Assembly (NCBI GenBank): GCA_000091205.1
Contig: AP006500.2
Length of the DNA stretch: 64,000 nucleotides
Reading direction: 5' to 3' (one strand)
From: Cyanidioschyzon merolae
Taxonomy: Eukaryota
Positions within the stretch are counted from its first letter, which is position 1. Every line of letters begins with the position of its first letter. A model generated the notes under the pieces. It worked only from the letters and a program-made list of their open reading frames with translations. It did not search any database and was not told where the DNA came from. Below are positions 25,295-41,690 of this stretch, one piece after another. Position numbers and translations under genes: made by a program.

Positions 25295-27844
25295 TCAAAC
25301 GGATGCTTGGTTATCTGTCTCGTCCCAGAGCGGTACACGCAACACCGGCTCTATCAAAACAACCCAGGGCTGTAGCCCCGACTGCTCTTTGATGATATCG
25401 CTGGCAGGCCGCTCCGCTCGCAGATCATCACCCCAGGATGCAACCAGCAGCACATCGATCCACACAAAAGGCATGGTGAGCACATATCGAAGCGACTGGG
25501 AGAACGCCTCCACTCGCTCTGGTTCAGCCGTTGACCAGCTCATGTTCGTCCCAGTGCAGAGCGTTGTCAGATCCTCGTCAAGTACCCAAGCCGAAATCAC
25601 CGTCGGCGCAGAAGCGATTATTTTCCGATTTTCGAAACGCAGGTCGTCATTTAGAAACGGCTGATTTTCCACCGCTTCTTTCGATCCACTCGGGCACTGG
25701 AATGGCAGATCTGTCAAAAGCAGCTGCAGCATGTGCCGCGAGTCAGCGTCAACGATCCAGTGCACGTCGCAGACGCAGGCGTACACGCGGTAGAGCCGAT
25801 GCATTGGAGTGTCGGCGCGCGCGCACGCATTACCCGCTGCACGCATCGAGCGCAGTGCACGCATGTCATCCAACATATGCGCAAGCGACTGAGGGCGTAG
25901 CGCTTGCCAGGGTATGCTCATCGTTGAACTTGTCTGTAGCAGCGGTGGACCACTACAATGCAGGCAGCTGGGGTGCTGTACAGGACCCCGTTTGACAATT
26001 CCTGTCTCTGCGGACTCGATATTAGTCGTTGTATGGGAGGTGGTGGTGTAGGCAACGCGTTCGCGATTCAGTTCGGTGCACGGGGCGCTGAGTATGGGAT
26101 AGGCAGCAGCGCTCATTTGTTCCGGTGTATTTCGGGTGCCAAGCGCACGCTGGTGAGCAACGGGCGCTGCTTCGTATGCGCTTTGCGAATCGGTCCGACA
26201 CGTGGGATCAGTCAATGCTGCTCCCAAGTGCTGCATGCGACTTTGCACCTCGGGCATCCATTGCGGGAACTTGTAAATCGATGAACCCTCATTCATGGTC
26301 AGGCGCAAAGGCAGACCCGGGCGTCGATCGAGGCGTACATCGCGAAGCCGGAACCAGTTACCGCGAAGGTGCGGCTCCAGTCGATGTGTGAGCCGCGTCC
26401 AGCACTCTGCGGCAATGGAGACCGTCACCAAATCGGAGATGCTTCCGTCGGTGACTTTGAGCAGGAATTCGTACGGGGTTTTCTCCAAGTCCCGAATGAG
26501 CACCACCAGATCGTATCGTAGCCGTTGCATGGCGCTGCCGTTTGCTGAGTCGACCACAAGCGAACTTTGCAGAATGTCTCGCAGGGTGGCGGAGAACGCC
26601 TTCGAGCCGAGAAAGCCGCTTTGCGACAGGAGTGCACGCGCCCAACGTAGCAACTCCATGGCGTAACATTTTTCACTATTGGTGATCACGATCGATTTCG
26701 TGTTTGACGGGTAAGCATATATGAGCGGATCGGGTAAATGATTCATTTCTTCGAGATGAGTGGCGGTCGCGGCTCGCAGACCGGACAAGTCTCCGGAAGC
26801 GGAAGCCGACGAGCGTCCCAAACCAGCTCCCTCATCATGCTGAGCAAGTGCAGGCCAGAGGCACATAGAAGAGAGCGAATTTGTCTTCAGCTCCAACGTC
26901 TCCGTCTTCGAACCACTCGGACTCTGTTGGGGAAACCACCGCAGCTCGGCGCGATGTACCCGGACGACGTCTCCTACCCCGATGTACGGAACGCAATCGC
27001 TAAGACGGCTACTGAACGAGGTAAGCATGAATTGGGGAGGTGCGAAGCTCACCAGCCGCCCATCAGAGTCTGTTACGACGATGCTTGGATCGATGATCTG
27101 CAGCTCAGTGAGCAGTTCTCCGGTACGTACCAGGCGAGGCGCCCGGACGTCGACGATCACCCCGTAAACGTCATACGTGCGACCGGACATCTGGCCGGGG
27201 TGTCGCAACTGCTCAAGCGTTAAGTAGTGATGTTTTGAGTCCAGGGGCACTACAGGCCTCGGAACTGGTTCGCAACTTTCGTGCTGTGCGACGGGGCGTC
27301 CACTGGTGTCCGTCCCTGCACCATGCTCTGTGACGACCAGAGTTTGCCCTATAGACTCCGGAGACAGCTTCATGATACGTGCGTTTGCAAGTTGGGATAG
27401 ATCGTTGCACTTGCCGGCGTCTTTGAATATGGTGAGCGCGGGTTTGCAGGCTGTTGCGTCTGCGGCACCAGCACAGCAGGCCTCTCGCTGGTCAGGACCC
27501 AGTACCACCGCGTACTCGTGTAGTTCCAGACACGAGTCCAACAGTCCATGGTCCCTGGCCTCACAAATGTCGCCCAGCGGTACGACCTGTGCGTTCTGAA
27601 CCTCCACAACGTCCCAGTGTGCTAGGGCGGTGCCCGCGGCCGTCCAGTCGCCGGTGCAAACAAGCACAACCACGGTCTGCTGTGGAGCAGGAACACTCGG
27701 CCAGGGCTCAAGTAAAGCAAGGATCGCTCTACCTGAACGATTTTCAACTAATGTTCGAAGGACTCGCCCTCGTAGACGAAATGGATGCTCAGCGTTGCAG
27801 GTGTAGGGCTTGAGGCTCCGAAACTGCACGAGACGCAGTTCCAT
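25295..27844 (-). CDS. hypothetical protein (~850 aa). Possible OB-fold-like segments; function unknown.
   Basis: Long uninterrupted minus-strand frame 25295-27979. The track start at 27979 overlaps the 3' end of the Fanzor-like frame, so the downstream ATG at ~27844 (MELRLVQF) is preferred. Segments such as TYDVYGVIVDVRAP..TGELLTELQIIDPS resemble ssDNA-binding OB folds, but only weakly. Confidence 0.4.
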   Translation of the reverse strand: MELRLVQFRSLKPYTCNAEHPFRLRGRVLRTLVENRSGRAILALLEPWPSVPAPQQTVVVLVCTGDWTAAGTALAHWDVVEVQNAQVVPLGDICEARDHGLLDSCLELHEYAVVLGPDQREACCAGAADATACKPALTIFKDAGKCNDLSQLANARIMKLSPESIGQTLVVTEHGAGTDTSGRPVAQHESCEPVPRPVVPLDSKHHYLTLEQLRHPGQMSGRTYDVYGVIVDVRAPRLVRTGELLTELQIIDPSIVVTDSDGRLVSFAPPQFMLTSFSSRLSDCVPYIGVGDVVRVHRAELRWFPQQSPSGSKTETLELKTNSLSSMCLWPALAQHDEGAGLGRSSASASGDLSGLRAATATHLEEMNHLPDPLIYAYPSNTKSIVITNSEKCYAMELLRWARALLSQSGFLGSKAFSATLRDILQSSLVVDSANGSAMQRLRYDLVVLIRDLEKTPYEFLLKVTDGSISDLVTVSIAAECWTRLTHRLEPHLRGNWFRLRDVRLDRRPGLPLRLTMNEGSSIYKFPQWMPEVQSRMQHLGAALTDPTCRTDSQSAYEAAPVAHQRALGTRNTPEQMSAAAYPILSAPCTELNRERVAYTTTSHTTTNIESAETGIVKRGPVQHPSCLHCSGPPLLQTSSTMSIPWQALRPQSLAHMLDDMRALRSMRAAGNACARADTPMHRLYRVYACVCDVHWIVDADSRHMLQLLLTDLPFQCPSGSKEAVENQPFLNDDLRFENRKIIASAPTVISAWVLDEDLTTLCTGTNMSWSTAEPERVEAFSQSLRYVLTMPFVWIDVLLVASWGDDLRAERPASDIIKEQSGLQPWVVLIEPVLRVPLWDETDNQASV

Positions 27845-27920
27845 AGATTCCGTCGCACCAACAACGCCGTTCGAAAGTCGAACGACGCCAACGGTGTACA
27901 GTAGTGGCGGGAAAACCGTC

Positions 27921-30423
27921 TTAGAGAAGATGTCTCCAACTGACGTGCAGACACCTCCCCGCCTTTTTGGACCGGCCACCCACTACTGCTTCCAACTTTT
28001 TCTCATCTAGTTCGACTTTGATAGGTTGTCCAATAAAGTTCTCTCTTGTCAGCTCTGGAGGTCTCGTCTCCAGGACCGCACATCTCCGTACATTGATAGC
28101 GGCATTAAAGTCTCGGTTCACAAACTCCATACGTTTCTTCCCGTTGCGAGTTGTACTCACTATTGCGAGTAGCCCTCGAACTTTCGCCCTCCTTTCCATT
28201 TGCTCCTCCGTCAGCGGTCCGTACTTTGCTATTTCCTCAGGGCTCCTCTGGCACTTTTCTATCTCCACGCTCTGAAGTGTACAACCCAGTTCGTGGTATA
28301 TATACGATGTTCGGAACTCATCTACAGGTATCGTAACAAAACGCCTTGCGCACTGTTTGTGCACCCTCGTCGTTGGAGCTGGAGTAGTGCCTTTCTTGGG
28401 CGCCCAGCGCCCTGCCCCATACGCTACTACGAGCCTTTGACTTTCATCCTCCTTCAAGGCGCTCAACTGATTGAAAAAGTTGGCAAACGCCCGCTGCTTC
28501 CCACCGTATAGATTCATTCGCAAACGAGCCCACCGGGGCTTCGTATACTCCTCCCACAGCGCATCCCAATGCGCCATGCGAACTTCCATGAATTTCCGAA
28601 AAGCTTCAAATTTCGCGCTTCGGCTAGTCACCTTGCTCAAAGCTTCCAGGTGATCCTTCATCCCTGAATTCCAAGTCTCGATTTTCTTCCTTGCATTCAT
28701 GATTCCCGATTCTCGATAGTATCTCGCTCTCGAGAACGTCAAGAGACGCATGTCTTTCTGACGTAAGTTGCCGTCAGTACAATCTTCCGCCCGCTTCGGT
28801 GCTGCGATGGTGATGATATTTGAGTTTCCGGTGTCCGCGCCAACGACAAAGTCGTTATCTTGCACTTTCTGCTTCTCAGAACCGGGCTTCTTGTTTTCTT
28901 CATGGTTCGTCGCGTCAACGACAAAGTCGTTATCCTGCACCTCCTGCACCAGAGGATCCGCTTCCTTCCCATCTTCATCCTTCGTCACGTCAACGACAAG
29001 GTCGTTATCCTCCACCTCCTGCATCGCAGGTTCTGCCTCCTTCTCATCTTCATCGTTCGTCACGTCAACGACAAAGTCGTTCTCTTGCACCTCCTGTGTC
29101 GCAGGATCCGCCTCCTTCTCATATTCATCCTTCGCCACGTCAACGACAAACTCGTTATCCTCCACCTCCTGCATCACAGGATCCTCCTCTTTGTTTTCTC
29201 CATCCTTCGCGACGAGCGCAGCCGAGGGCGGAACTGGCCGACCTTCCTTCAACCGCCGATAGTGTACACACAAGGGTACTCCATCGGTTTCGATCAACCC
29301 AGTAAATACCTTTTTTTGCTGACTTTTAGACGTTTGAAATCGAAGATACTCTTCCAGTACGTCTCCCGGTGTTCGCCGGAGAACTCCTCCCTGCTAACAT
29401 CGAACTCCGGACAGATCTCCCTCATGATGCCGTAAAGGACGCCGGAGTCGATAGTTACAAAATGTGACTTGACTTTCCACATTGGAACCACGTTGAAGCG
29501 CTTCCCCATTAGGAAATTCTTCCGTCTCTCCCACTGTTCATTTGTCTCTTCACTCAGCTTCACCTCCGCTTTGCGTGCGAGCTCTCGGTCCAAAAACACG
29601 AAATAGCGCAGGATGAGGCGGTAGTATCTTTCCTTATCTTTTTTCAACGGTGATATCTTGTCTGTTGGATTCACCAACCCAGTGCCGCACGGTGCTCTTG
29701 TATAGCCGCACGGATCACAGAAGCTTCATTCGTGCTCCTGCGTGATGTCTTCATATCGACAAATTCGATCTCATCTTCATACTTTCGATCGTTCGTGATG
29801 CCGTTGATCATCGCCCATATTCCTTTGCGAGAGATGCCCGGGTAGAGTGCAAACACGGCGCGTTTCATGAAACGTTCGAGGTTCTCTGTCAAATGCTTCT
29901 TCAGGTTCGTAATGTACTTCATTACCCCGTATGTGTAAATATTTCCGTCACCCTTGTATCGGGTACGCTCGAAGCGGTATTCGGCGTAGTTTTCGTGGAG
30001 AGCGTGCACTAGCACATTTTCCTTCCGCGCTTCCCCTGTACCAAGCATCAGGTGACGAATAAAGGTCTTGTGGAAAAACTCGTCTGGAATCTCGACCGTT
30101 TCCATGTGCGTCACGTCGCGATACATCTCCCTCGCCAAATGCATCAGCCCTGAAGACGCCTTGACAATACTCTTGGAGTGCGAGTCGACACGTTTTTCGA
30201 TAGCGTCTCGCAACTTTTCCCTGTAGGGATCCTTGATATGTCCAAGAAGGAAGGCTTTCACCACCATCTCGTCGTACAGTCGTCTTTCTTGCCGCCTTCG
30301 ACGTAGGGCGTCCACCTTTCGATTCTCCTTCACTTCCTTTTCTTCTGGACTCGGCACTGTATTTGTTTTTTTTCTGGCAGCCGGCGACACTGGGCCTCCA
30401 GGATCGTGGACTTGCTTTTTCAT
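27921..30423 (-). pseudogene. TnpB/Fanzor-like RNA-guided RuvC endonuclease homolog (OrfB_IS605 family). The frame of about 835 codons is split into three ORF-track segments (30423-29671, 29677-29294, 29297-27921) by two +1 frame changes.
   Basis: Middle segment: RuvC-I-like ..[16 protein letters not shown].. (Asp codon ~29436-29438). 3' segment: TnpB-type ..RRFVTIPVDEFRTSYIYHELGC.. (the 'VDP.YTSQ.C' block) and RuvC-III ..EFVNRDFNAAINVRR.. (Asp codon ~28110-28112). The CxxC zinc ribbon is mostly missing, and the canonical RuvC-II Glu position reads ..RLVVAYGAGRW.. (substituted). The middle and 3' segments begin with TTG in the ORF track, and their frames stay open upstream and overlap. One junction coincides with the A7/T7 run at 29311-29317. 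Confidence 0.7.
28847..29192 (-). repeat. five tandem 75-bp repeats encoding an acidic 25-aa unit (consensus ~QEVxDNDFVVDVTxDEDxKEADPxx) inside the Fanzor-like frame
   Basis: The period is visible directly in the DNA (gtcaacgacaaagtcgttatcctgcacctcctgc... recurring every 75 nt) and in the translation (PVMQEVEDNEFVVDVAKDEYEKEADPATQEVQENDFVVDVTNDEDEKEAEPAMQEVEDNDLVVDVTKDEDGKEADPLVQEVQDNDFVVDATN...). It sits between the RuvC-I and RuvC-II regions. Confidence 0.85.
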
Positions 30424-30780
30424 AGCTTTCCTTTTTTAGTTTTTTTGAGAAAGAACGCTCTTTGAACCCTTCTGTTATATACTGCGAAAAATTAATCGAA
30501 TATTTTTACTTGAGGTTTGAAGCACAATCGAACTGAAAGACTGTACGTTGCTATGACCTGAACGAAAATACAACGTTTACAATAGATCTACATGCTAGAG
30601 ATCAGGATCACGTTCCCCTTCAAAAACGGCATGTGCGTCGTGTCTCATGCCTGCCTGATCTCCGAGGTGCGCTCACTGAGCGCGATGCAAACTAGTCACA
30701 AACTATTTATCAAAGAACAACTATCTTTAAGCCCAACACACCACGCCCGCATAAGAGGTCTAGTTTTTCCGGAGAAGCTC
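30424..30780. promoter_or_regulatory. AT-rich (~35-40% GC) spacer directly upstream of the Fanzor-like frame start; putative promoter or element end
   Basis: Sharp drop in GC (tttttttagtttttttgagaaagaacgc...ttatatactgcgaaaaattaatcgaatatttttacttg) compared with ~60% in the flanks. It lies between divergently oriented mobile-element reading frames. Confidence 0.3.
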
Positions 30781-31289: not shown

Positions 31290-34200
31290 GTGCGTTCTCA
31301 CACCCTGGGGAGGGTGCATCTAAATCGACGACGTATCTCTGGAGTACCGCAGCGTTACTCCTATTCCCTTATGCGCTACGACTCGATAGGTTTCGCATCA
31401 TGGAATATTTGTGGGATAGCCTCGATACTAGACGACGAGATATCGAATTACCAGTACAGTAATGAAGAACTGATACAAGTCGTTGACTGTACAATGGGTA
31501 AAGAGACCCAACCAGATACGGAGAAGGAGACACAGAAACCTCATGATCCACCTAGATGCAAAATATCCAGAGAAAGCAGCTCAGGAAAGAGCCCGAAGAA
31601 GAAGAAGACCAGCAAGAAAAAATAGATGAATAGAAAGAAGAACTCCCAAACGAGCCCATCACAAGTCATCCCCCGAAAGGGCACCCCAGCGGGATCTCAA
31701 GAAAGCTGTCACCAAACCCAGGCACCTGCTCACAGCGCTGAAGATCCGAAAAGCCGTGAATACAAATCTTCAGACCAATTGGCACGCGAGTTTGTAGATG
31801 GGAATCAGAAGATTGCCAGAGAACTGGGACTGCTTGCACCTGAACACAACAGTAGCAAGCCGCAGTACCTCAAACGACGTACCAAAACTCGGATTGATGA
31901 ATGCCACCGACTCCATAAGATCGTCAACCGCACCGCCATACGCGCCAACGCCGGAGACAAGGAAGCGAAAGCAGCGCTACCGGCGCTACAGGCGCAACAT
32001 GAAGAAGCTATCAAAAGAAAGAAGAAACTTTCCAGAGAAGACAAACGAGAGGATCGAAACCGCAAAATGGCCTCCCTGACGGAATTTATGCTCGAGAGCA
32101 CCAACGAAGATGAGACCTAGCGCTCCATTCGATCGAGACTGGACCCACCAAAAAAGTGCTTGGGGCTCACACCAATCGTTTATGAGGAAGCGCTGAGGAC
32201 GGAGCGTGCCTCAGGGAATGAGGCCTGGATAAACCACGGGATAGAGCTGCATGAAGACGCAACTGGGCACTGCCGAAACCGAAACTATTGGCAACAGTAT
32301 GCATCAGAACTACTACGCCTCGACCCGGTACCGGAATGGAACGACCCAATCTTCTGGACTGAATCTGTTCGGACCCTGCTATGCTCAAGCAACCGCAAAA
32401 CACCTGGCTTTAACGGTATCCCTGCGGAGTGGATGAGACTGGCGATTCCAAAAGACGGGACAACAGGGACACCATCGATACCAGATGAACCTGACACAAT
32501 CTTAGGCAAACGCCTTGTGGAGCTCATCCAACGCATGTTCGAAGAGGCGTACATCCCGGATGTATGGAGGACTGCCGAGGTCGTACCGATCCTCAAAAAG
32601 GACTCCCACACAGACATGAACAACTACTGGACTATGCGCCTCATCCCGTCAATCATGAAGCTACTTTGCGCCATCCTCACGAACCGGATCCAGACGCGCT
32701 TCGAGGAGCGCAAGTTCTTCGCCTCAGAACAGGCTGGATTCCGGAGCCGCAAGGAGTGCATGAGCCATGTCCTGACCCTCATTGGAGTGGCGCAACGTCG
32801 CTTCATTAGCGACCAACAACCAACTTACGTATGCTTCGTCGACTTTCAAAAGGCTTGTGACACGTTCCCGCATGAGGCTCCATTTCTGAAGATGGGACGA
32901 TCCGAAGTCTCCGGAAAGTGCTTGGCGTTCTTCCGTGCGCTCTATGCAGACTCATGGATGCGCATCCGACTGGGCGACAGCTCAAGAACCCCTTGTATAC
33001 GAATCCACCGTGGACTGCGACAGGGCGACCGCGCATCCCCGCTCCTTTTCAACATCTTCATCAACGATCTGCTTAACAACTGCAGACAATACGGGCTTGA
33101 GGTGCCGTGGATAGACTGTGGAGATGCCCGATGAGGAGCGCCCATTTGGGAACCGCCTCGCAGGCCGTTTAGTTGCGGACGATGCCGTGCTGTTGGCAAA
33201 CGCCCCGGAAACGCTTGCTGCTAGCATGGAACAAGTCAGCGCCTGGGCCGATCGCTGGGGTATGAGCATAGGAGCATCGAAGTGCGGCGTCATGCTCATC
33301 CATGGAGACTCGCAGAGCATTCGCAATCGCTCGTGGCGGTTGCAGAATCAGGAAATTCCGATCGTGGAAACATATCGCTACCTGGAGGGTCTGTCGCACG
33401 CCGACGCTCGACGAAAAGGCACACGTTAACGAGATGATCGCCAAGATGCATAGACGTACAGCGATCGCACGCCCATTCCCATCCGACCCCTCTATCCGCT
33501 TAGCAATCCGTACGAGGGCACTAAGGATGTGTATCATCCAGCCTGCGACCTGGGGTACTGAATGGTGCGGCATGAAGCACGCAAATGCCTCGCGTCTGCA
33601 GACAGCCGCCAACAGGGCAATGCGACTCGTTGTTGTTGTTGGATGCTCAATGCAGAGCAGAGCAACCAACCCGTTGACACTCGGACTTGAACTCCAAATA
33701 CCCTCGATAGAAGCGATAGCAGCAGGTTGCCGGGTACGTATATGGGCCAAAGGGCCCGCCATGCGCACCTCTTTGAGTCGGAGTTTCATGCAGACCCCAA
33801 CGCACCGCAAGAAAACTTGGATGAAATCGACGCAGATTTGGCAGAAGCGCCTCTTGGGCGAAAACACGCTCCCCAATCGTTCCCCAGAAATATAGAATTC
33901 TCCCGTCGCCTGAAGCGAACGGTCCAAACGCCAATATGGGAAGGTAGACATGGTACCAGTCGCGCTAGTAACGCCGGCTTGACTCTATATCGGAACTACA
34001 ACCTAGCATACACATGCAAGTACTGGTGGGAGGCGCTGGAATTCCCGGGACTTGCTCGCGGTACCCTGTGGCTTGCCAAAATCCGTGTTAGTGGCATCTG
34101 GCTACCAGCACCGGCTCTAAGCCGTACGGGAACACTGGAACCGCACTGGGAGTCACACTGTCCCTGCTATCGAGAAGAGACCCCTCGAGACGCTGACATA

Positions 34201-34900
34201 TTTGGGCTTACAGTGCCCGCGCTCGAAGCAGGAGCGCAGCGAGCTCCTTGGAGGACACCAGCAGCTGGGCATCACCGTGATAGTCGAAGGCCGGACACTC
34301 ACTCTGAGTATAGCACCGGCAACTGATGGTCCGATAACCGAGCCTCAGCGCTCATCAGTGGCGAACAAACTCACATGCTACCTTCTAGGCATGAGGTCCA
34401 GCGTATCGGATGCGCACACGGGTTTAGTGCACTTTCTGCGCCTACCCACTGTGGTGGGTGTCAAGCACAAACCCGCATTGCCAACCTACAACACATTCAA
34501 TGCATGATCACGAAGGAGAGAGGCGGCTCCCAGGATTCAACCTAACAGCCAAGTTTCTACAGCGTGTATTGCGGCGAAGGCAAGCCTGCATTTGCAGACT
34601 ATCCGAGCACAAACTGACGACGAGACCCGATTCTACGTCGGGTGAACCACACCTCGAGCCGACGCCCTTTGTGGTATAGAAAAGCTGTTCTAGCTCTATG
34701 AGCTATCTGCTCCAGCGTTCAAGTGCAAAGGCGAATACGGAACGGCAGGTACTAGGCACACACGATAGGACGTATGAAACGACCAGAATATCCGAGACGA
34801 AGTATAGCTAATGTAACATGGGAGTAGGGGGTTGATGAATACCTCACCTCGCACTGAAAAAACAAACACACAATAAAAGTAGGAAAAGAAGAATGCGCAT
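31290..34900 (+). mobile_element. degenerate non-LTR (LINE-type) retrotransposon copy. One long frame holds a basic N-terminal region and a reverse transcriptase. Two in-frame TAG codons and frameshifts inactivate it. A-rich 3' tail region.
   Basis: Frame 0 is continuous from 31290 to 33134 except for TAG at 31623-31625 and TAG at 32118-32120. The RT motifs are listed under the next feature. Later parts shift to other frames (33118-33429, 33302-33895, 33727-34326). An A-rich stretch ctgaaaaaacaaacacacaataaaagtaggaaaagaag lies near 34850-34900. No APE endonuclease domain was recognised. Confidence 0.75.
32160..33429 (+). pseudogene. LINE reverse-transcriptase domain (frameshifted near 33118-33134)
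   Basis: RT motifs 0-7 are listed below with a VADD variant of YADD. The 32160 start is a TTG artefact of the ORF track. Confidence 0.8.
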
Positions 34901-35357
34901 GATCGGAGAACGCTGGCCTAAGTAAACGTTTTGTCCATGAAAACAATCGTAGCTTCAGCAACGGTGAAACCGGGGCTCGGCGTTCCGCGGGGCATGCTCC
35001 ACTGACTTGTCGAATATGCACGAAAATTGTCGAATTCATTGCTGATGACGCTGCTACTGTGTTGCAGTAGTACGCAGTGGACCTGTCTTCTGCGAGTCTC
35101 GAGAACATTTTGCACTCGAACGGAAACCTGTACGTTCGGACGCTTAGACCATTCGCGTCAGAGGATGCTTTTCAAAATGCATTCTTATCGGGAAAACTCG
35201 AACGTCTCCGCGCAATACCCAGCCATATTACCGGCACTAGCGTGGCCGATTGGCCCCCTTCGACGCCGCTGGCTACAGAGCACTAGTAACCGAGACGCTC
35301 TGGGCATCTCGCAAGCATCGCGTTGCCAATCGCATGGATAAGCTCTGGAATGCCAGC

Positions 35358-35507
35358 GGATACAATCGATCATTCGCTATTTGCTCCGTGTCAACGATGA
35401 GACACACCCAGCAATCGTATGCACCGAGTTTCGGATACAATCGATCATTCGCTATTTGCTCCGTGTCAACGATGAGACACACCCAGCAATCGTATGCACC
35501 GAGGTTC
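35358..35507. repeat. near-perfect tandem duplication, two copies of 75 bp
   Basis: Unit ggatacaatcgatcattcgctatttgctccgtgtcaacgatgagacacacccagcaatcgtatgcaccgag occurs at 35358 and again at 35433 with a single-base difference at the unit end. The small ORFs on both strands that translate as GYNRSFAICSVSTMRHTQQSYAP x2 are probably spurious. Confidence 0.9.
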
Positions 35508-35693: not shown

Positions 35694-38600
35694 ATGGGAC
35701 AACACTACTGTGGAGCTTTTCGTCCTCAGTTGTGGATACTTGATGACGACTTGTCTTCGGAGACACGAACATCTGAGAACTTTACCCCCAGCGAGCGAAC
35801 CTATGGCACAGAGCAGAGCACGTGGTCTGTGTCGACTCGAAGCGGTGCGTCTGATGGAACGCAGGCTTCCCCGATGGACACCTCGCAAGCTGCAGCAGAC
35901 GACGATGAGGACGCACTGGAGTTTGAACAACAAAACATAGAAGAGCGACTGGAGGGTTTTGAGGCCTTTGCTGACCAGTACTGGCGGATCGTGGTGTACA
36001 TCCTGCTCAACCTGTTGACGTGCGGTCTTGTCTACGCCGCGTTGCAGAGTTTCCCCAGCACCAAAGTGCGTCTGCTCTACAGACGTGCAACGAATCTGGC
36101 TGAAGCTACTATGTTGCTCGTGACGTTTCGAAGGAAAAGTCGCCAGAATAAGGGCCATTACTTTGTGATCCCGTCCGAGCCGCGTGCTCGTGTGCCGAGC
36201 AGCGTCCTCAGCGCGTACCTGGGTCGACTCTCTACGCGCACGATTTTGGGACAAAGTGCGCGTGGTCGAGAAACGTTGCGGCTTTTGAGCGAACCCGTTG
36301 AAACGGTGCTTGTGATCGAGGCTCGCCAGCGTCGGTATCTCCTCATCCAGTTATCAGGGTGGCGACACGCCGGTCAACGCGGCATGCACCAGCGTTTTAT
36401 CTGCTTGCGCATCCACAGTGCGTTTATTCCGGCATTTGAGGAGTACTATCGATTACCCACAGACGAGAGCTCTTTGATAACACCCAGCATGCATCCTATT
36501 CCTGAGCATGAAGTCGCACTACCGGTTGCCGGCTTCCACGAAGAGGACGAAGCAGCTTGGGATCGACCGAGCGATCCCCGTGGAAACCAAGAGTCTGCCG
36601 TGGCGGACGTCGAGGATCCCGCTGCCCCCGAGGCTGAAGTACAACCGGCGTCGCTGGTGCTTCACCGACCGCTGGGCATCGACCTGCTAGAGGCAGATGT
36701 CATCCGGGCGATCGTAGGCGACAACAGTATCGAGGTAGAGATGGCACCCTTACTCAGGCTGTTCCTGCAGTCTGTCACACATCCATTCTTCCTCTTCCAA
36801 TTCTTTTCGATTGCGTTGTGGATTCTCGAAGCGTACTACTACTATTCAGCGACAATTGCATTCGCCTCGTTTATGAGCGCCCTCCTGGAAGCCATGGAGA
36901 TGCGAAGCAATGCGGAGCGACTTGCTCGTATCGCCGCCAGCGAAGGAGATGTGCTAGTGATCCGTCGGTCGCCTACGAATCGCTCTTGTGACTGTTGCGA
37001 GCGCATTTCTTCCCGGGAGCTTGTTCCAGGAGATGTGATCATCGTCGAGAGTGGCATGGTTATGCCGTGCGATTGTACGCTGCTGCAAGGCTCAGCGGTC
37101 GTCACGGAAGCGAATCTCACGGGCGAAGCGGCGCCGCTTTTCAAGTCCTCCTGGCACAGTGCATACGAGGAGCCCAGCTCCAGGGTACCCCCGCGAATTC
37201 CCATCGAGTCTTACCAGCACAGTTCGGGACTTGCAGCGGTATCCGAGGTGACCACGCAGGAAGCTTCTGCACACCAGGGCGCCGAGTCTTCTGCCCATTT
37301 CATCAACATGGAAGAAAGCGAAGGCAACGAAGAGGATGAACAGTCATCTGGCGAAAGTGAGGGCTATTTTATGGGCGCCTATTCGGCATCGAATGAAGCG
37401 GAGGATCTGCTTCCTACACCGGCATTTCACCACATGTCGGTAGGTGGCCTCAGCGCCTGGCTGCAACCCGCATCGGCCGCAGAAGCGTCCGCCGTCGGGA
37501 GCGCGCTGGACGCTTCCGTGGAACACTCGTACACCACCGCCGCCGCCACCACTGCTGCTGCTACTGCTCCTGCTGCTGCTGGCGCTGATGCAGACGTAAA
37601 TGTGCGGCAGGTATCTCGAGACGGAGAACGCTATAGACGCGAGCGCGGTGCCCGGAGCGTACCAAGGATGATGACTGCAGGGCGCCAGCACCAGGCGCCG
37701 GCTGCGCATCATTTAGCCTGGGATCAGGTCAATCATGTGCTATACGCTGGAACGAGAGTCATCGAGGCTCGTCCCGAACGGAGCGTGCCGAGCACCCAGC
37801 AGAGCACGGCGGCAGCAACGGATGCTGGGTTTTCCTCAGCGGGAACTTGGCAGGGTACTGGGATCACTGGTGCCGACAACGGAGCCTCCGCTACGCCCGC
37901 AACAGATGATCAGATGCAGTCGCTGGACAGCGCCGTCCTTGCACTTGTCATTCGAACGCGACTCGATACCGCCAAGGGGACGCTCCTGCATCAGATTTTG
38001 CTCGCAGATGACCAGACCTCGAGCTACGAACGCGGAAATCCGGGGCCGCGTGACACTCGCGACACCAAACTCTCGGTGTGGGCGGCGCTTTGGAGGCGCT
38101 TGCGCTCCAGGTCACCGCCTGGCGACGCCCACTTGGGCGATGGCGAACTCGATGACCCCGAGAGCAGTGACAAGCGACTCTCGCAAATGTATCTGGACGC
38201 GTACAAGGCCATGGTTGTGCTGCTGTTCGGTGGCGTCCTCGCTACGGTCTATTCTTTCACCCTGTTGCGTCCGCTGCTCTCGTTTCGAGAAGCCCTACTC
38301 AGCGCACTCGATGTGTTGACGATTGTGGTACCACCGGCACTGCCAGCGGCGGTTACCTTTGGGATTGTGTTCGCACTGGAGAGGCTGCTTGCGGCCCAGA
38401 TATACTGCATTCGTCCGCCGGCGGTTCTTATTGCATCTGGGATCGAAGCGCTCTGCTTCGACAAGACGGGAACCTTGACGGACCTGGGCCTGGACATTCA
38501 CGAAATCCTCCCGGTAGCGTCGATGCCGCTCGCACTGGAAACATTGCCCGGGATTCAGGTCTCGAGCGACCCGCCTGGCGGCATAACCACGGCTGCAACA

Positions 38601-41600
38601 GAGGGCACCATTGCCCTCTTCGATACGGAGCACGTCATCCGACGTCACGACTTGACAGAGGAGGGAGCAGCACCGGAGCACCAGCCGGCGCCCAGCGGGT
38701 ATGCAGCGCGGCTACCAGCGGGCCTAGCCCTGGTCATGAGTTGCTGTCATACGCTTACAGTGGTGCACGGCCAGGTGCTGGGCGACGAGGTGGATTCGCG
38801 TCTCTTCGAGCTCACCGGATGTGAACTGAGGCCAACTGCGAGCCCCGCTGATAGCCGTCGTTGGCAGGGCATTCATCCAGCTCAGACACTGTTTTATGTC
38901 GCTGAACGTCACGCGGAGAGCTCTTTTGGGCGAGTCGTGAAGATCTTCGCTTTTAGCAGTGAGTATGCGCGCATGGGTGTCATTGTGCAGCGACTGGTGA
39001 CTCCGGAGAGCGAGCAACCACCGCAGGTGGAGTGGTTATTTTTAGTCAAGGGTGCCCCCGAGGTGGTGGTGAACTTTTGCGATCGACGCTCCGTACCGAG
39101 CGATTTCAGTCACCAGGTGCAGCTGTACACATCACAGGGCCTGCGGGTACTTGCACTTGCCGGGCGACGTCTGCTGACAACGGACGCGCGTGCACGTCGA
39201 GTTCGCCTGGATGCCGCTGCGCAGGCACTCACGAAGCGCAACCGCAGCCTTGGTACACGAGAAGGAGCACCAACAGCACCAGCAGCAGAGCCACCGGGGC
39301 GTGCGCAAACAGCCCGCAATGCCACGCCCCTGACCTGGAGCAGGCAACGCTTAGAGCGCTCACTCACCCTGTACGGATTGGCGGTGCTTGAGAATCGCCT
39401 CAAACCCGATACAGCAGCGGCCTTGCATGAGCTGCGGCATCGCGCCGACCTCCACTGCCTCATGGTGACTGGTGATCATATTCGCACAGCAGTGAGTGTC
39501 GCTCGCCAGTCGGGCATGATGGACCGCGACGCCCGAGTCATTATCGCTGACGAGCTGAACGCTCAGCTCGTTCAGCGGAGGCGTCAATGCACACGCTTGT
39601 CCTCGTTCGCTTCCGCGAATGCACAATCAGCAGTACCGGGAAATGCTGGTGGCGGTAACGTTGTGGTGCCGGTGGACACCACCACGAGTCAGGTAGTCTT
39701 CTCCGACAGCATGCATGTGCAGAAACGCTTCAGCCGGATGGAGGTGTTCAGCTTGTTGGCTGCATCACCCTGCTCTGCGCGTCTGAATCGCCTCCTGAAC
39801 CGGAGTAGTGCACTGGGGGTGCGGATCATGGAGCGTGCTCCGCTCGTTGCCTGGGAAGCAGAACAGCCTGCTGGCTTTCCAGGAGCGGTGCCCGAAGATG
39901 CACCGATGACGAGTTTCCAGGGCACGACGCATTCTACGGAAGCTACCACAGAGGCAGGTGTATTTCGCTCACGCACGCGCTCGTTACGGAGCGAAGCAAT
40001 GCTGCGCGATACCAGAAGCGCTCAACCCGGATACGGACGGCGAACTGCGGGTAGTACAGCGGCAGCCGCTGAGCAGAGCGATGAAGGGCTCGTCGGTGCC
40101 ACGGGTGTCTCTGCGGGAACAAGCGGCGCTGAGGTCACGACCTTGGCGCGTGGTCGCCTTTCAGAAGCGAAGACACATCCAGCGTTGTTGCTCAGAGAGG
40201 CGGAGGCGGCAGAAGCGGCACCTTTGGAACAGCACGCTGCGGTCGCTGATGAAGCCGCTGTGCCGCCACTCCCGAATCGACGTCATTCTCTTTGGACTGG
40301 AGAACGTGCTGGCACCAGCGCTCTATCCTCGGTTGCGACGGCAAGGGTGGCGTTGCCCCAGGATGAGCCCGTTGCCTTGGCGATGACCGGAGCTGCGTTT
40401 CGTCTCCTGCTTCGAGAGTTTCATCGTTTGTCGGGGAGTCTCGCACGCAGTCGCACGCCAGGTGCTAGCAGTGGTGTTGGTGTTGGTGGTGTTGGTGGTA
40501 GTTGTGGTGGATCTCGAACGTCATCACGTCGCTACCATTTCCTACGACAGGTGTTTTTGCGTTGTACAGTGTACGCGCGTATGTCGGCAGCCGACAAAAC
40601 CGCCCTCGTGCATTTGCTACGAAGCCGTTTCGGCCTCTGTGTCGGTATGTGTGGAGACGGTGCGAACGATGCGGGCGCGCTGCGGGAAGCTGACGTTGGT
40701 GTCGGTCTCGTGGAACGACGCGTTTGGAGTACCAGCGAGTCGCAGGCCTCTGGCGAGGCACCCCTAGAGCGCATCCGGATCGAGAAACCTGATGCTCTGG
40801 CGCGGGAGTATGGCGACTCGCGCGCTCCAAAAGCCACCGGTACGAAGCGGGACTTGCTGCTGCTGCAGCGTCTCCGACCAAAGTCCAGCTCTTCGGCGGT
40901 TGCGGGTGACGACGAGGACGCAGTGGCATCGCTTGCAGCGCATTTTACCAGTCAGGTGACGAGTATTCGGGCGGTGGTCAAGGTACTCACCGAAGGCCGC
41001 GGTGCAGCAGCTGCTTCTCTGGCTTGTTTCAAGTACATGGGCATCTACTCGCTAACCCAATCGATCAGCACGCTATTCCTCTATCGCATCGGTACGGTGT
41101 ATTCCGATGGACAGTTTCTTTTCCAGGATCTGGTGCTCATCATGCCGCTGGCGTTGACCATGGGTCGAACCGCCTCCCAGACGCGCCTCAGTCGACATCG
41201 TCCACCGGTGCGACTAGCTAGTGCTCCCGTCTGCTGGTCGATGGTGCTCCAGAGTCTGGTGCAGGCCAGCTTCCAAGCCGCTGCCGTCTATGCGCTGACA
41301 CAAGCGGATACCGTACCTGGAAGCGTCTTCGGGATGACGTGTCGCTGGAATGCGCCCTGTCCGGCTGCCACGGTGCTCTTTCACGTCGTCAACGCGCAGT
41401 ATATCTGGTCAGCGATCGCGTTCAATATGAAGTCTCCGTTTCGACAGTCATGGGAACAGAATCCGTGGTTCCGCACCACCCTGGCCCTGCTCTCGTTGCT
41501 CTGTTTGAGCGTGATCGAGCCTGTCGTTCCGCTCTTGCAACGGATGCTGGCCTTGGCACCGCTCTCCACGAGCATGCGAAGATGGCTATGGGTCCTTATC

Positions 41601-41690
41601 GCTTTGAACGGTCTGGCGACGCTTCTGGTGGAGGCTGTTCTGAATTGGTACGAACACGGACGTGTAAGGGTGTCTGTCGAAGAGTATTAG
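35694..41690 (+). CDS. P5B-type P-type ATPase (ATP13A2/Ypk9-like cation/polyamine pump), 1998 aa, with very large low-complexity insertions
   Basis: Phosphorylation motif CFDKTGTLT, P5 signature VVPPALPAAV (PPALP fits the P5B subtype), hinge motifs MVTGDHIRTA and GDGANDAGALREADVGVGL, N- and C-terminal transmembrane segments. Start is uncertain: the first ATG in frame is near 35872 (MDTSQAAADDDED). Stop at 41688-41690. Confidence 0.9.
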   Translation: MGQHYCGAFRPQLWILDDDLSSETRTSENFTPSERTYGTEQSTWSVSTRSGASDGTQASPMDTSQAAADDDEDALEFEQQNIEERLEGFEAFADQYWRIVVYILLNLLTCGLVYAALQSFPSTKVRLLYRRATNLAEATMLLVTFRRKSRQNKGHYFVIPSEPRARVPSSVLSAYLGRLSTRTILGQSARGRETLRLLSEPVETVLVIEARQRRYLLIQLSGWRHAGQRGMHQRFICLRIHSAFIPAFEEYYRLPTDESSLITPSMHPIPEHEVALPVAGFHEEDEAAWDRPSDPRGNQESAVADVEDPAAPEAEVQPASLVLHRPLGIDLLEADVIRAIVGDNSIEVEMAPLLRLFLQSVTHPFFLFQFFSIALWILEAYYYYSATIAFASFMSALLEAMEMRSNAERLARIAASEGDVLVIRRSPTNRSCDCCERISSRELVPGDVIIVESGMVMPCDCTLLQGSAVVTEANLTGEAAPLFKSSWHSAYEEPSSRVPPRIPIESYQHSSGLAAVSEVTTQEASAHQGAESSAHFINMEESEGNEEDEQSSGESEGYFMGAYSASNEAEDLLPTPAFHHMSVGGLSAWLQPASAAEASAVGSALDASVEHSYTTAAATTAAATAPAAAGADADVNVRQVSRDGERYRRERGARSVPRMMTAGRQHQAPAAHHLAWDQVNHVLYAGTRVIEARPERSVPSTQQSTAAATDAGFSSAGTWQGTGITGADNGASATPATDDQMQSLDSAVLALVIRTRLDTAKGTLLHQILLADDQTSSYERGNPGPRDTRDTKLSVWAALWRRLRSRSPPGDAHLGDGELDDPESSDKRLSQMYLDAYKAMVVLLFGGVLATVYSFTLLRPLLSFREALLSALDVLTIVVPPALPAAVTFGIVFALERLLAAQIYCIRPPAVLIASGIEALCFDKTGTLTDLGLDIHEILPVASMPLALETLPGIQVSSDPPGGITTAATEGTIALFDTEHVIRRHDLTEEGAAPEHQPAPSGYAARLPAGLALVMSCCHTLTVVHGQVLGDEVDSRLFELTGCELRPTASPADSRRWQGIHPAQTLFYVAERHAESSFGRVVKIFAFSSEYARMGVIVQRLVTPESEQPPQVEWLFLVKGAPEVVVNFCDRRSVPSDFSHQVQLYTSQGLRVLALAGRRLLTTDARARRVRLDAAAQALTKRNRSLGTREGAPTAPAAEPPGRAQTARNATPLTWSRQRLERSLTLYGLAVLENRLKPDTAAALHELRHRADLHCLMVTGDHIRTAVSVARQSGMMDRDARVIIADELNAQLVQRRRQCTRLSSFASANAQSAVPGNAGGGNVVVPVDTTTSQVVFSDSMHVQKRFSRMEVFSLLAASPCSARLNRLLNRSSALGVRIMERAPLVAWEAEQPAGFPGAVPEDAPMTSFQGTTHSTEATTEAGVFRSRTRSLRSEAMLRDTRSAQPGYGRRTAGSTAAAAEQSDEGLVGATGVSAGTSGAEVTTLARGRLSEAKTHPALLLREAEAAEAAPLEQHAAVADEAAVPPLPNRRHSLWTGERAGTSALSSVATARVALPQDEPVALAMTGAAFRLLLREFHRLSGSLARSRTPGASSGVGVGGVGGSCGGSRTSSRRYHFLRQVFLRCTVYARMSAADKTALVHLLRSRFGLCVGMCGDGANDAGALREADVGVGLVERRVWSTSESQASGEAPLERIRIEKPDALAREYGDSRAPKATGTKRDLLLLQRLRPKSSSSAVAGDDEDAVASLAAHFTSQVTSIRAVVKVLTEGRGAAAASLACFKYMGIYSLTQSISTLFLYRIGTVYSDGQFLFQDLVLIMPLALTMGRTASQTRLSRHRPPVRLASAPVCWSMVLQSLVQASFQAAAVYALTQADTVPGSVFGMTCRWNAPCPAATVLFHVVNAQYIWSAIAFNMKSPFRQSWEQNPWFRTTLALLSLLCLSVIEPVVPLLQRMLALAPLSTSMRRWLWVLIALNGLATLLVEAVLNWYEHGRVRVSVEEY

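Follow-up and report, generated by a model that had tools for sequence, protein, structure and literature searches.

The minus strand of the 64,000-nucleotide stretch of DNA analyzed here (hereafter, the window) carries a nuclease reading frame that is interrupted twice between positions 29290 and 29700. The question is whether this locus is a gene whose parts are rejoined during expression, an intact gene that was misread, or a gene that has been lost. An earlier note on this DNA had named three alternatives, homopolymer sequencing error, genuine pseudogenisation, and a short intron, without preference among them. We conclude that the locus is very probably a pseudogene of the Fanzor1 element CMe-1A, with no intron, recoding signal, or assembly error, and that both breaks are real single-nucleotide deletions in homopolymers.

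Two single-base frame breaks in one coding sequence

All three minus-strand frames of 27900-30500 were translated. Three overlapping frames (30423-29671, 29725-29294, and 29393-27921) give a protein of 834 residues when two single nucleotides are added, one to the run of three G (G3, 29678-29680) and the other to the run of seven A (A7, 29311-29317).

29671-30423, minus strand: frame segment A; ATG at 30423 and TGA at 29673-29671; N-terminal 250 residues with a basic N-terminus.
29294-29725, minus strand: frame segment B (middle); open from 29725, with the stop at 29296-29294; 29294-29677 according to the ORF finder.
27921-29393, minus strand: frame segment C (C-terminal, containing the RuvC nuclease domain); open from 29393, with the stop at 27923-27921; 27921-29297 according to the ORF finder.
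29678-29680, minus strand: frame break 1; G3 (CCC on the plus strand) versus four bases in the family, mostly as CTGGGG; a 1-nt deletion.
29311-29317, minus strand: frame break 2; A7 (T7 on the plus strand), one base too few.

In the minus-strand translation, segments A and B overlap by 55 nt, and segments B and C by 100 nt. The TTG starts at 29677 (segment B) and 29297 (segment C) are artifacts of the ORF finder, as the earlier note had held, since both frames remain open upstream and overlap the preceding segment. Each deletion shifts the frame by one base, and this is why the ORF finder shows three overlapping pieces.

The start of segment A agrees with the N-terminus MEKEVEDPGGPVSPAAGKKRK of the published CMe-1 protein. 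The addition of one G at the G3 run gives EHRAALGLVNPTDK, which agrees with EHRAVLGLANPAEK in the same protein. With one more A in GCAAAAAAAGG (29311-29317; the plus strand has T7), the frame yields exactly the 19-residue stretch that had been proposed to join the middle and 3′ segments, and this stretch matches the relatives, in which KRLKVSK[K/Q]KVFTGLIETDG is read without interruption. The published CMe-1 protein reads AAIQEHRAVLGLANPAEK and FKRLKASKQKVFTGMIETDG across the break sites. Both the three-frame translation and the alignment to the CMe-1A consensus therefore bear out the proposal that two single-base changes split the nuclease frame, and the A7/T7 run named as one of the sites is indeed one base short relative to the relatives. 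At the other junction (~29671-29700), the overlapping frames that had been described are present (55 nt), but the remark that no homopolymer is evident there does not stand, because a G3 run stands where most paralogues and the published consensus carry G4 (CTGGGG).

Compared with the 3169-bp consensus, the only frame-breaking indels (other than multiples of 3 nt) within the coding sequence are the two 1-nt deletions, located at consensus positions 1644 and 2014. Being the sole coding indels of this kind against the published consensus, the two breaks are features not attributable to chance. The other coding indels, one of 75 nt and one of 225 nt, are in-frame insertions that together add four 25-residue repeat units.

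The frame lies in a copy of CMe-1A

CMe-1A was described as a Fanzor1 element of C. merolae by Bao and Jurka in 2013 (Mobile DNA 4:12, PMC3627910). The element has approximately 150 copies, each ~80% identical to the 3169-bp consensus, and no terminal inverted repeats; its target-site duplication was not determined by its describers (PMC3627910). The CMe-1 protein consists of 734 residues encoded by a single exon, and some CMe-1A copies are still intact (PMC3627910). The consensus was taken from the supplement of that paper and aligned to the window.

27865-30688, minus strand: CMe-1A Fanzor1 element copy; 86.8% identity over 2560 nt to consensus ~640 (589)-3169.
30424-30688, minus strand: conserved untranslated leader 5′ of the ATG; 75-90% column identity among copies; aligns to the consensus.
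28838-29212, minus strand: in-frame tandem repeat with a 75-nt unit (25 residues, acidic; QEV[EQ]DNDFVVDVTKDEDEKEADPA) and 75-nt spacing.

Consensus positions 589/640-3169 align to window positions 30728/30688-27865, and the span conserved among 47-56 copies runs from ~30688 to ~27860. The identity of the window copy to the consensus (86.8%) lies within the range of ~80-87% for CMe-1A copies. Five host proteins encoded in the window are identical to C. merolae 10D proteins (BAM82602, BAM82604, BAM82610, BAM82611, and BAM82615) encoded on the chromosome of 1,253,087 bp, and the host is thus Cyanidioschyzon merolae, as for CMe-1A. The species and the protein are the same as those of CMe-1A and CMe-1, and the published 734-residue protein is continuous over both junctions.

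The window copy differs from the consensus in three respects. Besides the two inactivating 1-nt deletions, it has five units of the tandem repeat, versus one in the consensus, the copy number also differing among relatives. About 600 bp at the 5′ end of the consensus are also missing from it, with no match to consensus positions 1 to ~590; these belong to the 5′ 635 bp that CMe-1A shares with TE-N2_CMe. All copies share the boundary at window position 30688, and at least three different sequences are found upstream of the boundary. The window copy is therefore either a 5′-truncated or a variant-5′ member of CMe-1A. No inverted repeats of ≥40 nt were found anywhere in the window, and the element ends are not mutually complementary in the alignments. 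Look-ups for identical proteins returned none on record for segment A, for the portion of segment C that begins with ATG, or for the POT1-like ORF beside the element, and cluster look-ups gave no NCBI-annotated CMe-1A protein.

A neighboring reverse-transcriptase element on the plus strand (~31290-34326) is likewise split into several frames.

The protein belongs to the Fanzor1 nucleases

Fanzor1 is a eukaryotic TnpB-like RNA-guided RuvC DNA endonuclease (PMC11423790). The earlier reading of the gene as a nuclease was correct; by both profile and fold matches, it encodes a RuvC nuclease of the Fanzor1/TnpB type. The following motifs are found in segment C.

28824-28841, minus strand: RuvC-I motif GADTGN with the catalytic Asp; the Asp is invariant in the 80-sequence alignment and aligns to DPGR of PpFz1 and SpuFz1.
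28305-28325, minus strand: RuvC-II motif VDEFRTS with the catalytic Glu; the Glu is invariant in the alignment and aligns to DEFRTS of PpFz1.
28098-28118, minus strand: RuvC-III motif NRDFNAA with the catalytic Asp; nearly invariant in 80 relatives and aligned to the catalytic motif of PpFz1 and SpuFz1.

A protein search gave 18 relatives with 48-77% identity, all of which are metagenome gene calls, and several of them span both junctions in one frame. When 1.8 billion representative proteins were searched with a profile, 1428 relatives were obtained. In the 80-sequence alignment of these, the Asp of GxDPG and the Glu of VDEFRTS are invariant, and the Asp of NRDxNAAxNI is nearly so. When the profile built from these 80 sequences was searched with hmmsearch against solved structures, PpFz1 (9cf0, E=1.3e-20), SpuFz1 (8gkh, 1.3e-12), and GtFz1 (9cer, 4.9e-7) were matched, and the D/E/D motifs align in all three. 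These matches appeared only once distant relatives from the search of representative proteins had been included in the profile. A profile of 19 close relatives gave no PDB match, single-sequence searches with the three segments and the sequence P0001 against Pfam, NCBIfam, and PDB sequences gave nothing meaningful, and none of the Pfam or NCBIfam TnpB models was significant.

The AlphaFold model of the last 322 residues of the window protein has a pLDDT of 86 and a pTM of 0.81, whereas that of full-length P0001, made from a shallow alignment, has a pLDDT of 33 and is unusable. In a Foldseek search with the 322-residue model, SpuFz1, PpFz1, and GtFz1 are the best matches (E=1e-10 to 3e-7). The top seven are all Fanzor1, followed by Cas12o, TnpB, and Fanzor2.

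A zinc ribbon is usual between RuvC-II and RuvC-III of Fanzor1-type nucleases. The corresponding region of the window contains two Cys only (HELGC...EKC), as does that of the published CMe-1 protein in the part of its sequence available. It thus departs from the C4 zinc ribbon (OrfB_Zn_ribbon) that lies between RuvC-II and RuvC-III as part of the motif of Bao and Jurka (PMC3627910). The Pfam model Cas12f1-like_TNB was matched by single relatives only (E=0.23 and 0.0023). Based on homology, the protein is filed as a member of the Fanzor1 clade with a degenerate zinc ribbon, and the describers of the element also place CMe-1 in Fanzor1.

Compared with the solved Fanzor1 nucleases SpuFz1 (8GKH), PpFz1 (9CF0), and GtFz1 (9CER), the similarity is clear in profile (E=1e-20 to 5e-7) and fold (TM-score ~0.5-0.6 on the query), while the sequence identity is 11-20% and the CxxC...CxxC zinc ribbon is reduced to two Cys. 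The solved enzymes are omega-RNA-guided DNA endonucleases, whereas the window copy cannot be translated as a single protein. The RuvC fold is also shared with bacterial TnpB of IS200/IS605 (ISDra2 TnpB, 8H1J; Foldseek E=8e-5), and the window element, as in TnpB elements, has no terminal inverted repeats and has palindromic stems at its 3′ end. In contrast to TnpB of IS200/IS605, the protein has a much larger, unrelated N-terminal half, the element contains no TnpA partner, and the host is eukaryotic.

The break sites in paralogues and in other alleles of the locus

Metagenome contigs were scanned; the scan found 357 related stretches, of which 80 loci were returned. Paralogous loci spanning both sites are in frame at both without exception (76 of 76), and neither deletion is found among them. 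The stretch at junction 1 is 24 nt long (CTGGGG-type) in all 76, and 23 nt long only in the window and in two contigs, L013 and L023. At junction 2, the paralogues read AGCAA[A/G]CAAAAGG, in a stretch of 27 nt. L013 and L023 represent the orthologous locus. They are two independent metagenome contigs, 99.2% and 98.8% identical to the window, respectively, over ~5.2-5.6 kb, and the alignment takes in the POT1-like flank. The G3 deletion occurs in each of them. At the A run, L023 has A7 as in the window, while L013 has A8 (27 nt, in frame at junction 2). Each also carries private lesions, one stop in L013, and two more frameshifts and one stop in L023. Since neither lesion occurs in any of the 76 paralogous loci, both arose at the window locus after insertion.

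The best of the rival explanations, though itself very unlikely, is that the reference is wrong at one or both breaks, through an error of sequencing or assembly, and that the gene is truly intact. Homopolymers are classic sites of such errors, and the A8 of L013 against the A7 of the window is in line with this explanation. However, both independent assemblies of the locus show the G3 deletion, and one of them also shows A7. The intact host ORFs of the window serve as a control; over 30.2 kb and 210 homopolymers of ≥4 nt, no frame break occurs. The genome of C. merolae 10D is, moreover, finished and gap-free (PMC1955436). Because the host ORFs are unbroken and the reference genome is finished, an assembly error is unlikely. 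A8 would not rescue the gene, as the G-run break would persist, and further lesions are present in both other alleles. Of the alternatives raised earlier, homopolymer error is accordingly improbable but keeps a partial hold on the A run through the A8 of one orthologous contig, this run being either a length-polymorphic homopolymer or miscalled in one of the assemblies. Genuine pseudogenisation is the alternative upheld, judging from the G-run deletion in two independent assemblies, A7 in one, and the absence of the lesions from the paralogues.

A still less probable explanation is programmed recoding of the kind seen in transposase genes of the IS1/IS3 type, either by -1 ribosomal frameshifting or, at the A run, by transcriptional slippage. 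The -1 direction is needed at both junctions, and one of them lies on an A7 run followed by AGG, so that the arrangement is like the programmed -1 sites of IS1/IS3 (A6G/A7 motifs), where overlapping frames of a mobile element are joined at an A run. The resemblance is superficial. The shift is conserved in no relative, all 76 paralogues and the consensus being in frame at both sites, and the orthologous A8 allele would be out of frame for a programmed shift. The register is also not slippery, as the zero frame at junction 2 is AGC AAA AAA AGG, with no X XXY YYZ heptamer, and the second break lies elsewhere, at junction 1, where the zero frame CTG GGT TGG TGA has no slippery motif.

The least tenable explanation, with almost no probability left to it, is that the frame changes are short spliceosomal introns removed from the mRNA; the host is eukaryotic and the neighboring frames overlap by 55 and 100 nt, but the DNA aligns collinearly to the in-frame paralogues and the single-exon consensus with a gap of one base per site and conserved flanking codons, no extra sequence is present relative to the intron-less relatives, in the overlaps between frames the GT..AG stretches of length 3n+2 measure only 17 nt (junction 1) and 5, 14, 38, and 62 nt (junction 2) and carry poor donors (GTGCGG, GTTCTC, GTACTG, and GTCAGC), their excision would lose conserved residues, and introns are found in only 0.5% of C. 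merolae genes (PMC1955436). The persistence of the frame at both sites in the 76 paralogous loci thus effectively rules out introns, including the short intron that had been suggested, as well as programmed frameshifting.

With pseudogenisation as the favored reading, the appropriate annotation for the three ORF fragments is one CMe-1A Fanzor1 pseudogene; they should not be entered as genes, as a gene with an intron, or as a recoding site. The locus is a case of ordinary decay in a known family, CMe-1A being already published, and has little importance beyond its correct annotation.

Decay of the window copy

All 80 related loci returned (from the 357 stretches) have at least one frameshift or stop, and each has its own set. 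The indels among these loci recur at a few positions, one of which is the A-rich sequence surrounding the A8 run (30366-30373). The window copy has dN/dS ratios versus its paralogues of 0.35-0.54 over the whole sequence and of 0.21-0.30 for the RuvC half. These values (0.21-0.54) indicate that the lineage was constrained at the protein level before individual copies died, and they accord with the remark of Bao and Jurka on long-lasting coding capacity (PMC3627910).

In the repaired ORF, ~4.4% of the possible substitutions would create a stop, and none of the 834 codons is an in-frame stop, which implies a neutral divergence of less than ~3% since the constraint was lost. The window copy therefore died relatively recently, and it is among the least damaged full-length copies seen. 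Its damage amounts to two lesions and no in-frame stop; one base per site restores the Fanzor1 sequence to full length, with its three catalytic residues all present, and the restored sequence is testable.

The following course of events would explain these observations. A copy of CMe-1A, an old transposable element present in many copies, would have been inserted beside the POT1-like gene, escaped selection, and begun to decay. The first lesion would be the loss of one G from the G4 run; the order of events is judged from the alleles, the G-run loss being the oldest lesion because it is common to all sampled alleles of the locus. At the second site, the most economical course is that a C-to-A substitution (Gln to Lys) first converted the ancestral AAACAAAAG to A8, the state observed in L013, and that this run then contracted to A7, with replication slippage as the likely mutational mechanism. 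In the flank, nine differences from the window are common to L013 and L023, so that recurrent slippage or recombination is needed to account for the distribution of A7 and A8 over the three alleles. Between strains, A7 versus A8 is a simple marker for recent slippage in a homopolymer that itself arose by substitution. Presumably, no protein is made from the window copy.

Stem structures at the 3′ end

Folds of individual copies place three palindromic stems within the last 90 nt of the element.

27863-27955, minus strand: 3′ end region with the three palindromic stems.
27929-27955, minus strand: stem in the last codons.
27906-27920, minus strand: stem just 3′ of the stop.
27863-27889, minus strand: 11-bp terminal hairpin.

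In a hand-drawn structure of the 3′ end in 34 copies, 83% of the cells are paired, compared with 36-58% when the partners are slid. The covariation score of this structure does not exceed that of shuffled alignments, while the count of pairs with double changes is reached by only 4 of 500 shuffles. RNAalifold gave no useful consensus structure for the 3′ ends, and an Rfam search of the 3′ end gave no match. The terminal hairpin raised the possibility of a Helitron2-like or IS200/IS605-like end structure for CMe-1A, which was set aside; the 5′ end is heterogeneous and the target sites are undefinable.

By analogy with TnpB and Fanzor, the stems are plausible candidates for an omega-RNA scaffold or a transposon-end structure. 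The 3′ end with its conserved stems is as well preserved in the window copy as in the other copies. The locus could then be dead as a protein gene and possibly alive as an RNA gene, producing a hypothetical omega-RNA-like guide that is used in trans by Fanzor1 from the few intact CMe-1A copies; we regard this as improbable. If it were true, the guide would be the flanking sequence, which leads into the beginning of the neighboring POT1-like gene (ATG ~20 nt past the end of the element).

Upstream boundary and composite contexts

All copies have in common a sharp 5' boundary, located at window 30688 (about position 640 in the published CMe-1A consensus). Beyond this boundary, at least three different upstream sequences are found when the window from 30688 to about 32509 is compared with six related loci from metagenome contigs (L042, L044, L016, L035, L007, and L075), and each sequence recurs in its own set of copies. 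One type is the 5' portion of the published consensus, which resembles TE-N2_CMe, and another is a segment of approximately 250 nt with the palindrome GGACACGTGTCC. The type in the window extends over at least 2 kb and is 82–92% identical to several other loci. The common boundary together with the differing upstream sequences suggests that the mobile Fanzor unit begins at about consensus position 640 and is found in several composite contexts.

The following element neighbors the Fanzor copy.

about 31290–34326, plus strand, decayed reverse-transcriptase element of non-LTR type (Pfam RVT_1 over 32160–33134, E = 1.8e-13)

Its coding region is broken across several frames, and it lies head-to-head with the Fanzor copy, which is on the minus strand. 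Pieces of this element also adjoin other CMe-1A copies, in either orientation.

3' end and the POT1-like gene

Two features are located around the 3' end of the Fanzor element.

27863–27955, minus strand, three predicted palindromic stems at the 3' end of the element
25295–27844, minus strand (as the Fanzor copy), long POT1-like ORF with its ATG at 27844 (Pfam POT1 match at E = 1.3e-5, short of the gathering score)

Members of the AACGTTTTT...GAAAGACGTT subfamily retain the terminal hairpin in a shifted register. The element ends at 27865 according to the consensus alignment, or at about 27858 according to conservation. This end is only about 15–20 nt upstream of the POT1-like ATG (window 27824–27865), so that the Fanzor element must occupy the promoter or 5' UTR of that gene. 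An exact-protein look-up for the ORF starting from this ATG gave no annotated protein on record.

Length variation in the coding region

Two parts of the Fanzor ORF vary in length among copies.

28838–29212, minus strand, in-frame tandem repeat of an acidic 25-aa (75-nt) unit
30366–30373, second A run, within the N-terminal part of the ORF (minus-strand A8, read as T8 on the plus strand)

The acidic repeat forms a linker immediately upstream of the RuvC-I motif and consists of five units in the window copy, whereas the published consensus has one. The number of units also varies between paralogues, indicating that the linker before RuvC-I grows and shrinks freely. A separate 75-nt direct repeat, present as two tandem copies (99% identical) and unrelated in sequence to the one in the ORF, is found at 35357–35506, immediately upstream of the P5-type ATPase gene (35694–41690).

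The run at 30366–30373 is A9 in L023, a contig carrying the orthologous locus, in contrast to A8 in the window. Many paralogues have indels of 1 or 2 nt in the surrounding A-rich stretch (CDS nt 48–60), and this recurrence marks the stretch as a slippage hot spot for the CMe-1A family. The terminal part of L023 (positions 1–565 at the contig end, corresponding to window 29929–30493) diverges from the window by 6.4%, while the divergence outside this part is only 0.6%. This difference suggests that either a paralogue donated the sequence by gene conversion or the metagenome assembly is chimeric at that end of the contig.

CMe-1-like Fanzor1 clade

No Pfam model reached its gathering score in the members of the CMe-1-like Fanzor1 clade scanned, and the clade consensus is without the canonical CxxC...CxxC zinc ribbon. 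The clade is large in public data, with 1428 representative proteins at E ≤ 0.001 in the representative search, many of which are 580–700 aa long.
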